Sequence record: OK272476.1 | Reading direction: 5' to 3' (one strand) | DNA from: Escherichia phage JLBYU24 | Length of the DNA: 64,000 nt | Shown: piece after piece, positions 36,499-37,904 of the stretch | How the letters are laid out: the number at the start of each line of letters is the position of its first letter | Position numbering within the stretch: position 1 is the first letter of the stretch | The notes under the pieces: generated by a model | The model's input: only the letters and a program-made list of their open reading frames with translations | The model's database searches: none | What the model was told of the DNA's origin: nothing | Position numbers and translations under genes: made by a program

Positions 36499-36574
36499 TG
36501 GTCGAGGCAGTAGGGATCGAACCTACGACCTAGGACTTAGAAGGTCCTTGCTCTTCCTTCTGAGCTATGCCTCG
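36499..36574 (-). tRNA. tRNA-Arg (anticodon UCU), CCA encoded
   Basis: Manual fold: acceptor CGAGGCA/TGCCTCG, anticodon stem AGGAC/GTCCT, loop CTTCTAA, T-loop TTCGATC. Confidence 0.85.
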
Positions 36575-36578
36575 GATT

Positions 36579-36653
36579 TGGCGGACGTGATAGGATTCGA
36601 ACCTATAACCAATCGCTTAACAGGCGATCGCTCTGCCATTGAGCTACACATCC
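36579..36653 (-). tRNA. tRNA-Asn (anticodon GUU), CCA encoded
   Basis: Manual fold: all stems canonical; anticodon loop CTGTTAA. Confidence 0.8.
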
Positions 36654-36657
36654 AAAT

Positions 36658-36744
36658 TGGTGGGGAGTGATGGAGTCGAACCACCCGAGTCGCAATGACA
36701 ATGGATTTACAGTCCACACCGCTACCTCTACGGGATAACTCCCC
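36658..36744 (-). tRNA. tRNA-Tyr (anticodon GUA), long variable arm, CCA encoded
   Basis: Manual fold: acceptor GGGGAGT/ACTCCCC, anticodon loop CTGTAAA, long variable arm. Confidence 0.7.
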
Positions 36745-36756
36745 TAATTCATAATT

Positions 36757-36831
36757 TGGTGGCCCTGGGTGGAATTGAACCACCATCTGGCGATTATGAG
36801 TCGCTTGCTTGAACCTTCCAGCTACAGGGCC
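36757..36831 (-). tRNA. tRNA with CAU anticodon (Ile-lysidine type as in T4, or Met), CCA encoded
   Basis: Manual fold: acceptor GGCCCTG/CAGGGCC, anticodon loop CTCATAA. Confidence 0.75.
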
Positions 36832-36832
36832 T

Positions 36833-36908
36833 TGGTGCTGATTGACGGAATCGAACCGCCGACCTTCTCATTACAAGTGAGTTGCTCTACCTACTGAGCT
36901 AAATCAGC
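36833..36908 (-). tRNA. tRNA-Thr (anticodon UGU), CCA encoded
   Basis: Manual fold: acceptor GCTGATT/AATCAGC, D-stem GCTC/GAGC, anticodon loop CTTGTAA. Confidence 0.8.
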
Positions 36909-36913
36909 AAAAC

Positions 36914-37003
36914 TGGCGGAGGCGATAGGATTTGAACCTATGAGTCGCCGGAGCGACTGCCGGTTTTCAAGACCGGTGCATTAAACCACTCTGCCACGCC
37001 TCC
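36914..37003 (-). tRNA. tRNA-Ser (anticodon UGA), long variable arm, CCA encoded
   Basis: Manual fold: acceptor GGAGGCG/CGCCTCC, anticodon stem CCGGT/ACCGG, loop CTTGAAA. Confidence 0.8.
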
Positions 37004-37009
37004 AAATAT

Positions 37010-37660
37010 TTATATATTGTTAATTTGATTTAGAATTCTTTTTGCTTGAGTATGACTTACGCCAATATGCTTAGCATATTTAGACAATTCGCCACGTTTA
37101 GAAAAATCATATAATTTAGAAATTTCTATTCTTCTTTTTCTTTCATCCGCAGAAACTTTTGCTTCGTTTGCTTTTGCTATTTTACGTTTAGCTTCTTGAG
37201 AATGAGTTTTACCAGCAAAGCCATTCTTCATTAATCCATTTGAAGACCATCCTTTTAATTTTCCGTTAGAATGTGCCTTTTTAACACCCAATGAAATTAA
37301 TTCGCGTTGCTGATCTGTCATAGGATAATTATTTATATGGTCCCATCCACCTTCACCTCCAAGTTTTAAATTATACACATCTGGTCTATTTAAAAACTCT
37401 TCTGTGACAATATTTTTCTCGGCTTCAAGCATAGATTCTTTATCGTCAAAATACTCTAATATTTCTTTAGAAAAATTTTCTATACCATATTTATCTTGGG
37501 CTCTTTTTAATAATTTACCAGAACCCATATATCCATCATCTAAATTTTCGGTAGAATGCACACCAATATAAATTTTATTATTAATTTTATTTGTTATTTT
37601 ATAAAGATAAAAATGCATATCAGTCCCTAATAAAGAACTGAGCGTCTCACGACGAGTCAT
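37010..37660 (-). CDS. GIY-YIG homing endonuclease (Seg-like) inserted between the tRNA subclusters
   Basis: 216 aa; GIY-YIG motifs FYLYKITN...KIYIGVH, conserved R/E/N positions, basic C-terminal DNA-binding region; start may be Met at 37618. Confidence 0.8.
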   Translation of the reverse strand: MTRRETLSSLLGTDMHFYLYKITNKINNKIYIGVHSTENLDDGYMGSGKLLKRAQDKYGIENFSKEILEYFDDKESMLEAEKNIVTEEFLNRPDVYNLKLGGEGGWDHINNYPMTDQQRELISLGVKKAHSNGKLKGWSSNGLMKNGFAGKTHSQEAKRKIAKANEAKVSADERKRRIEISKLYDFSKRGELSKYAKHIGVSHTQAKRILNQINNI

Positions 37661-37664
37661 AAAT

Positions 37665-37738
37665 TGGAGCGGATAATGAGAATCGAACTCACATCATCAG
37701 ATTGGAAGTCTGAGGTAATGCCATTATACGATATCCGC
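37665..37738 (-). tRNA. tRNA-Gly (anticodon UCC), CCA encoded
   Basis: Manual fold: acceptor GCGGATA/TATCCGC, anticodon stem TCAGA/TCTGA, loop CTTCCAA. Confidence 0.8.
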
Positions 37739-37743
37739 AAATT

Positions 37744-37832
37744 TGGTGCGAGAAGTGGGACTCGAACCCACAAGGAAATCATTCCGCAGCATTTTAAGTG
37801 CTGTGCCTTTACCAATTTGACCATTCTCGCGC
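37744..37832 (-). tRNA. tRNA-Leu (anticodon UAA), long variable arm, CCA encoded
   Basis: Manual fold: acceptor GCGCGAG/CTCGCGC, anticodon loop CTTAAAA. Confidence 0.8.
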
Positions 37833-37904
37833 TGGGAATAAAGGACTCGAACCTTTGCATCCTGGAATCAAAATCCAGTGCCTTACCAACTTGGCTAATT
37901 CCCA
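37833..37904 (-). tRNA. tRNA-Gln (anticodon UUG), 3' end abuts tRNA-Leu, CCA not encoded
   Basis: Manual fold: U1-A72 acceptor TGGGAAT/ATTCCCA, anticodon stem CTGGA/TCCAG, loop TTTTGAT. Confidence 0.75.

Follow-up and report, generated by a model that had tools for sequence, protein, structure and literature searches.

A tRNA cluster of T-even type with a SegB-like GIY-YIG endonuclease gene in Escherichia phage JLBYU24

A 64-kb stretch of the genome of Escherichia phage JLBYU24 (GenBank:OK272476.1), referred to here as the window and used for all coordinates, was found to carry nine tRNA genes split by a gene for a SegB-like GIY-YIG protein, a predicted homing endonuclease gene (HEG). Comparison with other phages leaves little doubt that this cluster is a T-even (Tequatrovirus) phage tRNA operon and a common natural variant. 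The cluster is ordinary and already known, the variant having long been sequenced and annotated in dozens of phages. As judged by alignment, the HEG is a chimera in which the catalytic domain of SegB is joined to a different, predicted DNA-binding domain.

tRNA genes and identity of the operon

ARAGORN applied to the whole window called exactly nine tRNA genes, all on the minus strand between 36499 and 37904, and returned the same set, coordinates and anticodons as a preliminary description of this DNA (Table 1). With the Rfam model RF00005 (gathering score 29), eight of the nine scored 59-74 bits (E 1e-11 to 1e-15). The exception was tRNA-Tyr, a class II tRNA called by ARAGORN only, whose long variable arm made tRNA-Sec the best-scoring model of the clan (34 bits). 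The cloverleaf and conserved positions of bacterial-type tRNA genes were recovered by ARAGORN and the covariance model, and nine such genes inside 1.4 kb are no chance outcome. In the direction of transcription (minus strand) the order was Gln(UUG), Leu(UAA), Gly(UCC), the HEG, Ser(UGA), Thr(UGU), the CAU-anticodon tRNA, Tyr(GUA), Asn(GUU) and Arg(UCU), followed on the same strand by homologues of rnaD and rnaC and by a terminator, the whole lying between the trna.2-trna.4 genes and e.8 in a T4-like placement. The open reading frames (ORFs) flanking the operon correspond to annotated ones in phages Phaginator, AR1 and RB18. The nine tRNAs and the HEG had been listed in the preliminary description, but rnaD, rnaC and the terminator had been missed. 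Taken together, the promoter-proximal sequence, the tRNAs, rnaD and rnaC and the terminator indicate that the unit is a T-even tRNA operon reaching from promoter to terminator.

Over 1901 nt the region was 99.3% identical to Shigella phage vB_SboM_Phaginator (Tequatrovirus), and the remaining E. coli, Shigella, Serratia and Citrobacter phages among the matches listed were 97.4-98.8% identical to the region; identity to Phaginator, AR1 and RB18 ranged from 97.8 to 99.3%. A single match covering at least 80% of the region query was obtained in 53 phage records. In Phaginator all nine tRNAs of the window are annotated, with a "putative endonuclease" gene in the position of the HEG. Exactly these nine isotypes recur in RB51 (GenBank:FJ839693), where the gene separating tRNA-Gly from tRNA-Ser is annotated as a "truncated SegB-like protein" and has C-terminal DNA 98.7% identical to that of the window HEG. 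AR1 and RB18 have the window layout plus a tRNA-His and a 351-nt ORF. In RB51, Phaginator, AR1 and RB18 the gene goes under the names "truncated SegB-like", "segB; C-terminus divergent", "segD" and "putative endonuclease". Both repertoire classes, that with tRNA-Pro and that with the Tyr-Asn pair, are common among phages: the pair was covered over at least 80% in 395 phage records and tRNA-Pro likewise in 440 (these counts and that of the HEG type given below come from separate queries, and overlaps between them are not included). An exact 47-nt tRNA-Leu pattern gave three loci in IMG/VR; these were set aside and an annotated phage collection was used instead.

In T4 the order is Gln-Leu-Gly-Pro-Ser-Thr-Ile(CAU)-segB-Arg-rnaD-rnaC. 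The two phages have in common the genomic position, the promoter-proximal sequence, the Gln, Leu, Gly, Thr and Ser genes, rnaC, rnaD, the terminator, the abutting Gln-Leu pair, and a GIY-YIG HEG inside the cluster that has a near-identical catalytic domain and a hairpin occluding its ribosome-binding site (RBS). The window differs from T4 in that it has no tRNA-Pro, has tRNA-Tyr and tRNA-Asn, different Arg and CAU alleles, a changed Gln anticodon arm and an HEG with an unrelated C-terminus, which is located at Gly|Ser, whereas that of T4 is located at Ile|Arg. That T4 has Pro and neither Asn nor Tyr, as stated in the preliminary description, was confirmed; with Pro absent and Tyr and Asn present, the window departs from the eight-tRNA repertoire of T4 and belongs to a T2L/RB51-like class.

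The corresponding order in T2L (GenBank:AJ880101) is Gln-Leu-Gly-Pro-Ser-[trna.1]-Met(CAU)-Tyr-Asn-Arg-[trna.2]-rnaD-rnaC, and the Met(CAU)-Tyr-Asn-Arg set of this phage was published in 2008 by Brok-Volchanskaya et al. (PMC2330249). The Ser, CAU, Asn and Arg alleles of T2L and the window were identical or 1 nt apart and the Tyr alleles agreed at 86 of 87 positions, the HEG-distal alleles (Ser, CAU, Tyr, Asn and Arg) of the window being of T2L type and not of T4 type. Unlike the window, T2L has tRNA-Pro, no intact HEG, no tRNA-Thr (trna.1 instead) and the trna.2 ORF past Arg. The RB51 alleles matched those of the window at only 63/77 (Arg), 63/75 (Asn) and 85/90 (Ser) positions despite the equal isotype list and HEG. 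T6 also has its HEG inside the tRNA cluster, with a SegB catalytic domain that differs by one amino acid in the first 96 and a tRNA-Tyr identical at 85 of 87 positions; unlike the window, it has the HEG between Tyr and Arg, a T4-type C-terminus, neither Ser nor Asn, and a Pro/Thr chimera. This chimera is a T6 gene annotated as tRNA-Thr (643-717 of the compared AP018814 stretch) with a Pro 5' part and a Thr 3' part (TCCGTGTAGCTCAG|TAGGTAGAGC); it was not called by ARAGORN on T6, and its sequence implies that recombination at common D-arm sequences deleted Pro-3', Ser and Thr-5'.

The CAU tRNA had been left as Ile or Met in the preliminary description; the anticodon was correct, but the choice can be resolved. 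Its best matches covered the whole gene in 5,413 of 5,426 complete E. coli genomes, the top ones, with 81.6% identity, being annotated as tRNA-Ile, and a counterpart fetched as an example had the anticodon CAT and was located in a prophage tRNA-Ile/Arg/Arg cluster. In common with this E. coli tRNA-Ile(CAT), the phage gene has GGCCCT...AGGGCC-A-CCA, acceptor pairs 1-6 and the whole anticodon arm AGCGACTCATAATCGCC. Its acceptor (GGCCCTG/CAGGGCC plus A) carries C4-G69, C5-G68 and A73, which we take to be determinants of Ile2-type tRNA for recognition by TilS. On these features the gene is best read as an Ile2-type tRNA, AUA-reading and lysidine-dependent, rather than as Met or fMet.

CCA is encoded in eight of the nine tRNA genes, the exception being tRNA-Gln, which ends in ...ATTCCCA-G-C and is directly followed by G1 of tRNA-Leu. 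The abutment of the two genes had been noticed in the preliminary description, and the junction matches that of T4 base for base; the accompanying statement that neither discriminator nor CCA is encoded holds for the terminal CA (C75 and A76 are missing), but is wrong for the discriminator, G73 and C74 being encoded. The spacing of less than 5 nt and the upstream tRNA without encoded CCA are those of a dimeric precursor, and T4 tRNAs are classic RNase P substrates, cut from such precursors with repair of the CCA where it is not encoded (PMC11143913). By analogy with T4, Gln and Leu would arise from one dimeric precursor, and the CCA-adding enzyme of the host would finish the Gln 3' end, for which it is needed because only ...G73-C74 are encoded. 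For tRNA-Ser, CCA is encoded in the window and T2L, whereas the T4 copy has UAA there (PMC2330249).

Two alleles had local peculiarities. All eight differences of tRNA-Gln from the T4, T6 and T2L genes fall in the 17-nt anticodon stem-loop and the rest of the gene is identical; the arm reads CTGGA-TTTTGAT-TCCAG in the window, RB51 and RB18 versus TAGCA-CTTTGAC-TGCTA in T4, with the stem fully compensated and T instead of C at loop positions 32 and 38, so that this arm looks like a replaced segment. In tRNA-Tyr (36699 region, minus strand), C40 gives a G30-C40 pair where T2L, T6 and RB51 have T and a G-U pair. The tRNA-Tyr of T6 has been detected by northern blot (PMC13096335).

The endonuclease gene and its insertion site

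The 660 nt that separate tRNA-Gly from tRNA-Ser contain a single long ORF, at 37010-37660 on the minus strand. Its product matched GIY-YIG (PF01541) at 26.8 bits, above the Pfam cut-off of 22.6, in agreement with the GIY-YIG gene reported in the preliminary description as splitting the cluster. M1 of T4 and T6 SegB aligned at Met15 of the 216-aa ORF (ATG 37618), the N-terminus of T6 SegB, MHFYLYKITNK, is that of the window protein from this ATG, and the RB51 annotation uses the same start. The ATG at 37660 is 4 nt from the tRNA-Gly 3' end. The start at 37618 was therefore chosen, on the basis of the SegB alignment, the RB51 start and the closeness of 37660 to tRNA-Gly.

Residues 1-96 of the HEG product showed one difference from T6 SegB and four from T4 SegB, with DNA that was almost invariant, and the residues Y17 and G19, mutation of which abolishes the nuclease activity of T6 SegB (PMC13096335), are kept. 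The C-terminal part of about 100 aa was unrelated to T4 and T6 SegB from about residue 97 on; in BLASTP, identity ended at about residue 117 and no significant C-terminal alignment was obtained. With NUMOD3 (PF07460) the HEG product scored 19.5-20.1 bits, just under the cut-off of 20.4, as compared with 12.5 bits for T4 SegB, and its C-terminal part gave a weak helix-turn-helix (HTH) match. I-TevI-type GIY-YIG enzymes likewise consist of an N-terminal GIY-YIG domain, a linker and a C-terminal DNA-binding region, to which the NUMOD3-like and HTH-like segments of the HEG product are comparable (PMC2330249); the HEG differs from this type in being free-standing and not intron-encoded, in having NUMOD3 just below threshold and in that no Zn finger was detected. 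At an identity of at least 95%, the C-terminal type of the window was present in about 55 phage records. The HEG is a presence/absence polymorphism, being missing in T4, T2L and T6 at Gly|Pro|Ser and present in these records, and full-length relatives were found inside tRNA clusters of other genera.

Alignment with T4 revealed that the HEG and its 46-nt leader replace exactly tRNA-Pro together with the 10 nt that separate it from tRNA-Gly and the 2 nt that separate it from tRNA-Ser, which places the insertion where it had been proposed in the preliminary description, at the position of T4 tRNA-Pro. The flanking sequence next to tRNA-Gly matches T4 exactly as far as ...CCAATTTA, and the match resumes with G1 of tRNA-Ser. 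The leader is predicted to fold into a hairpin over the AGGGA RBS (-10.8 kcal/mol, z -3.6, none of 200 shuffles equally stable). A different but analogous hairpin (-19.4 kcal/mol) was found in the T4 segB leader, and for segB it has been proposed that the hairpin occludes translation (PMC2330249, PMC2988022). A three-way consensus fold including the leader of Shigella phage SdyM_006 collapsed, that leader not being homologous, and single folds were used. A search of the 46-nt leader for a relic of tRNA-Pro gave only an 8-nt match, GCTCAGTT, which was equalled in score by 206 of 2000 shuffles; the leader is instead homologous to the HEG leader of Klebsiella phage Mineola (Jiaodavirus).

The HEG of Mineola is a full-length homologue with 61% identity, the last ~40 aa, including the HTH-like GVSHTQA(K/R)RILNQ, being nearly identical. 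It also has a homologous 5' leader, with the same RBS hairpin containing two pairing-preserving substitutions (A-U to G-U and U-G to U-A), and it is located directly 3' of tRNA-Gly(UCC). The leader homology and the position together indicate that leader and ORF move as one unit, for which the 3' side of tRNA-Gly is a conserved landing place. Mineola belongs to a different genus with a larger and different tRNA set, and its order is Gly|HEG|Pro with an intact tRNA-Pro. As far as these sequences tell, the loss of tRNA-Pro is a trait of the examined Tequatrovirus carriers (Phaginator, RB51, AR1 and RB18), not of the HEG element.

A relative of the HEG C-terminal domain was also noticed in T2L. 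The trna.1 ORF (584-985 of the compared stretch), located between Ser and CAU at the place of the window tRNA-Thr, had 41.5% identity to this domain; the GIY-YIG domain is lost and the ...VSHTQA(K/R)... helix is kept, so that trna.1 is probably a decayed homing endonuclease gene.

Table 1. Features of the tRNA operon in the window, in order of transcription. Allele counts are identical/aligned nucleotides, gene by gene, against the genes of T4, T2L, T6 and RB51; nt, nucleotides.
Feature	Position	Strand	Score (bits)	Remarks
Putative MotA-type middle promoter	37974-37998	-		TGCTTTA at 37992-37998, 12 nt, TATTAT at 37974-37979
tRNA-Gln(UUG)	37831-37904	-	67.4	66/74 vs T4; abuts tRNA-Leu
tRNA-Leu(UAA)	37744-37830	-	59.3	CCA encoded; 87/87 vs T4, T2L, T6 and RB51
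tRNA-Gly(UCC)	37665-37738	-	63.3	CCA encoded; 73/74 vs T4
HEG cassette 5' leader	37619-37664	-		46 nt; predicted hairpin core stem 37620-37641, AGGGA RBS, ATG 37618
SegB-like GIY-YIG HEG	37010-37618	-		202 aa from ATG 37618; longest ORF 216 aa from 37660
tRNA-Ser(UGA)	36914-37003	-	62.6	CCA encoded; 90/90 vs T2L
tRNA-Thr(UGU)	36833-36908	-	72.9	73/76 vs T4
CAU-anticodon tRNA, best read as tRNA-Ile2	36757-36831	-	59.9	75/75 vs T2L and RB51; 47/75 vs T4 tRNA-Ile
tRNA-Tyr(GUA)	36658-36744	-		Long variable arm; 86/87 vs T2L and RB51; 85/87 vs T6
tRNA-Asn(GUU)	36579-36653	-	74.1	75/75 vs T2L; GGTTCGAATCC motif at 36593-36603
tRNA-Arg(UCU)	36499-36574	-	68.1	75/76 vs T2L; 49/76 vs T4
rnaD (species 2 stable RNA) homologue	36378-36497	-		104 matches over 116 aligned T4 positions
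rnaC (species 1 stable RNA) homologue	36233-36371	-		138/139 vs T4 rnaC
Intrinsic terminator	36159-36182	-		10-bp stem, 7 GC pairs, T run; conserved in T4 and RB18

Homing, codon supply and counter-defence

T4 SegB cleaves tRNA genes at the T-psi-C motif GGTTCRANTCC, the tRNA-Asn gene of T2L being its preferred target; in T4 x T2L crosses, 99.6% of the progeny inherit it, and T2L markers in the interval from tRNA-Ser to the species I RNA gene are excluded (PMC2330249). For T6 SegB, cleavage has been shown, and the enzyme promotes amplification of the adjacent tRNA-Tyr and thereby escape from Septu, which cleaves tRNA-Tyr; segB homologues beside tRNA genes are reported to be widespread (PMC13096335). 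Segmental amplification has been demonstrated for T6 only (Chihara et al. 2026, PMC13096335). In the window, GGTTCRANTCC occurred nine times versus 0.09 expected, with seven copies in tRNAs, one in rnaC and one far outside the operon at 63130-63140 on the minus strand (GGTTCAAATCC). The tRNA-Asn of the window is identical to the T2L gene holding the preferred T4 SegB site (mapped in PMC2330249), and for this reason the phage should be a recipient of T4-type SegB.

By analogy with T4, the operon would be transcribed as a single RNA from the MotA-type promoter upstream of tRNA-Gln to the terminator past rnaC, and the tRNAs would be released by host RNase P and 3' processing enzymes. They would add to the decoding of codons whose use in the AT-rich phage is far higher than in the host (AGA, AUA, GGA, UUA, ACA, UCA, CAA and those for Asn and Tyr overall), and tRNA-Tyr may also compensate for cleavage of this tRNA by host nucleases. 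The RBS hairpin would hold translation of the HEG low. In a mixed infection with a relative without the HEG, the enzyme, by analogy with SegB, may cut the other genome in or beside the Gly-Pro-Ser segment; with the HEG-bearing genome as template, repair would copy the HEG together with flanking tRNA alleles, erase tRNA-Pro and yield mosaic T-even repertoires. A concatenated query of T4-type and window-type C-terminal DNA matched 195 records at one place each, none of which covered both, and the two C-terminal types never occurred in one genome in the collection searched.

We tentatively propose, as a possibility to which we would give somewhat less than even weight, that the HEG specifies an active homing enzyme that arose by domain shuffling, is aimed at Gly-Pro(-Ser) of clusters without the HEG and is a rival of T4-type SegB, so that nuclease rivalry and not translational need would decide between Pro and Tyr plus Asn. 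If this is true, each nuclease would erase tRNA genes at the position of the other. Several points weigh against the account of the operon and its HEG in the preceding paragraph. Loss of tRNA-Pro is not obligatory upon HEG insertion, because Mineola keeps both. The replacement would have taken place without a documenting scar, because no remnant of tRNA-Pro is demonstrable in the leader. The target site and activity of the HEG are only inferred, because its C-terminal domain differs from that of T4 and T6 SegB, and no experimental study of the variant with the window-type C-terminus was found in the literature searched. The MotA-type promoter is a putative assignment made from a consensus read by eye and from conservation with T4. 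Finally, codon usage was compared between 66 mechanically called window ORFs of at least 100 aa (15,965 codons), with early and late genes pooled, and an E. coli K-12 sample of 65 annotated genes located in a single 50-kb region, split into ribosomal protein and elongation factor (EF) genes and other genes.

In this comparison all codons read by the phage tRNAs were enriched in the window ORFs, and proline was less used than in the E. coli sample (Table 2). The enrichment includes Asn and Tyr, for which a codon-usage comparison had been suggested in the preliminary description. The result fits codon supply, and a role in counter-defence is also compatible with it.

Table 2. Codon usage in window ORFs and in the E. 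coli K-12 sample.
Codon or amino acid	Unit	Window	E. coli, other genes	E. coli, ribosomal/EF genes
AGA	per 1000 codons	11.3	2.3	1.1
GGA	per 1000 codons	22.3	6.5	2.0
AUA	per 1000 codons	12.8	5.2	0.4
UUA	per 1000 codons	29.8	15.5	3.4
ACA	per 1000 codons	19.5	9.2	3.6
UCA	per 1000 codons	18.3	8.9	1.8
Asn	% of codons	6.3	4.2	3.3
Tyr	% of codons	4.6	2.7	2.0
Pro	% of codons	3.6	4.3	4.1

The extra tRNAs (Tyr and Asn, and His in AR1 and RB18) might instead be kept mainly as a counter-defence against tRNA-cleaving nucleases and not for a codon match, an explanation that we regard as rather doubtful, although it is compatible with the reading of the cluster as a T-even operon given above and differs only in the selective force. 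Nucleases of the colicin E5 type target tRNAs with GUN anticodons, a class that includes the Tyr, Asn and His tRNAs. The window tRNA-Tyr is identical at 85 of 87 positions to that of T6, overexpression of which rescues T6 from Septu, and T4, which has no tRNA-Tyr, cannot escape (PMC13096335). On the other hand, Asn and Tyr codons were 1.5- to 2.3-fold commoner in the window ORFs than in the E. coli sample, and because of this enrichment codon demand alone would be a sufficient reason for these tRNAs. Septu, moreover, cleaves the phage tRNA-Tyr too (PMC13096335), and the benefit would therefore be one of dosage, not of resistance.

It is also conceivable, but improbable in our judgment, that the HEG is a passenger which no longer homes and that the repertoires diverged by ordinary homologous or illegitimate recombination between similar tRNA genes. 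The T6 Pro/Thr chimera bears the signature of recombination between common D-arm sequences, and T2L trna.1, a relative of the HEG C-terminal part without the GIY-YIG domain, indicates by its degeneration that HEGs in the T-even tRNA cluster do decay. RB51 has the same HEG next to other Arg and Asn alleles, so that the HEG and flanking alleles are not strictly co-inherited. Against this explanation, the HEG has an intact ORF, and about 52 phage records share its C-terminal part at 99-100% identity. Its product has essentially the catalytic domain of T4 and T6 SegB, both of which are experimentally active, and the regulated leader is conserved across genera. For T4 SegB, both homing and exclusion of neighbouring markers have been demonstrated (PMC2330249).

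The preliminary description had linked a possible exchange of tRNAs in this phage to the GIY-YIG gene. A connection between endonuclease and tRNA genes is established for SegB (PMC2330249, PMC13096335), but the arrangement itself is nothing unusual, being the same in RB51 and Phaginator. That JLBYU24 underwent a novel exchange through a recent GIY-YIG insertion unique to it is suggested by the difference from T4 only and is practically untenable, since the same or nearly the same arrangement occurs in Phaginator, RB51, AR1, RB18 and about 50 other records, the Tyr-Asn pair occurs in 395 records and the T2L set was published in 2008 (PMC2330249).

For annotation of the genome these results are of little consequence, as transfer from RB51, AR1 or Phaginator suffices. 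The corrections would be to rename the CAU tRNA as tRNA-Ile2, to add rnaC and rnaD, and to start the HEG at the SegB-equivalent ATG. It is already published that SegB-type nucleases shape phage tRNA repertoires and that phage tRNAs serve both codon supply and counter-defence.

Operon boundaries and neighbouring sequences

The sequence upstream of tRNA-Gln was invariant in a three-way alignment of the window, T4 and RB18, and transcription of the T4 tRNA cluster starts at a middle promoter immediately before it and is presumed to stop past species I RNA (PMC2330249). A sigma-70 promoter scan gave 17 sites versus 15.6 expected, which is not above chance. A match to the T4 late-promoter consensus, TATAAATA, was located at 37007-37014 on the minus strand, over the HEG stop codon and 3 nt before tRNA-Ser; with 13 copies in the window as compared with 10.9 expected, the motif shows no enrichment, and this copy may be due to chance, being indistinguishable from a random one.

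The sole stretch of the rnaD homologue divergent from T4 (36407-36439, minus strand) is a hairpin. In the window its arms (GGCATTAAC / GTTAATGCC) pair perfectly over 9 bp, and in T4 (GCGTTAAT / ATTGATGC) they pair with G-U pairs, so that pairing is kept although the sequence has changed.

Just past the operon terminator, an ORF of 157 aa (35635-36108, minus strand) was noticed for which a Pfam search gave no match and which T4 does not have. It is flanked by a 36-nt direct repeat (35595-35630 and 36150-36185; 89% identity) that is the terminator hairpin itself, and a flanking repeat is mentioned in the RB51 annotation as well. This layout suggests that the ORF came in as a cassette and that the terminator was duplicated by its insertion.

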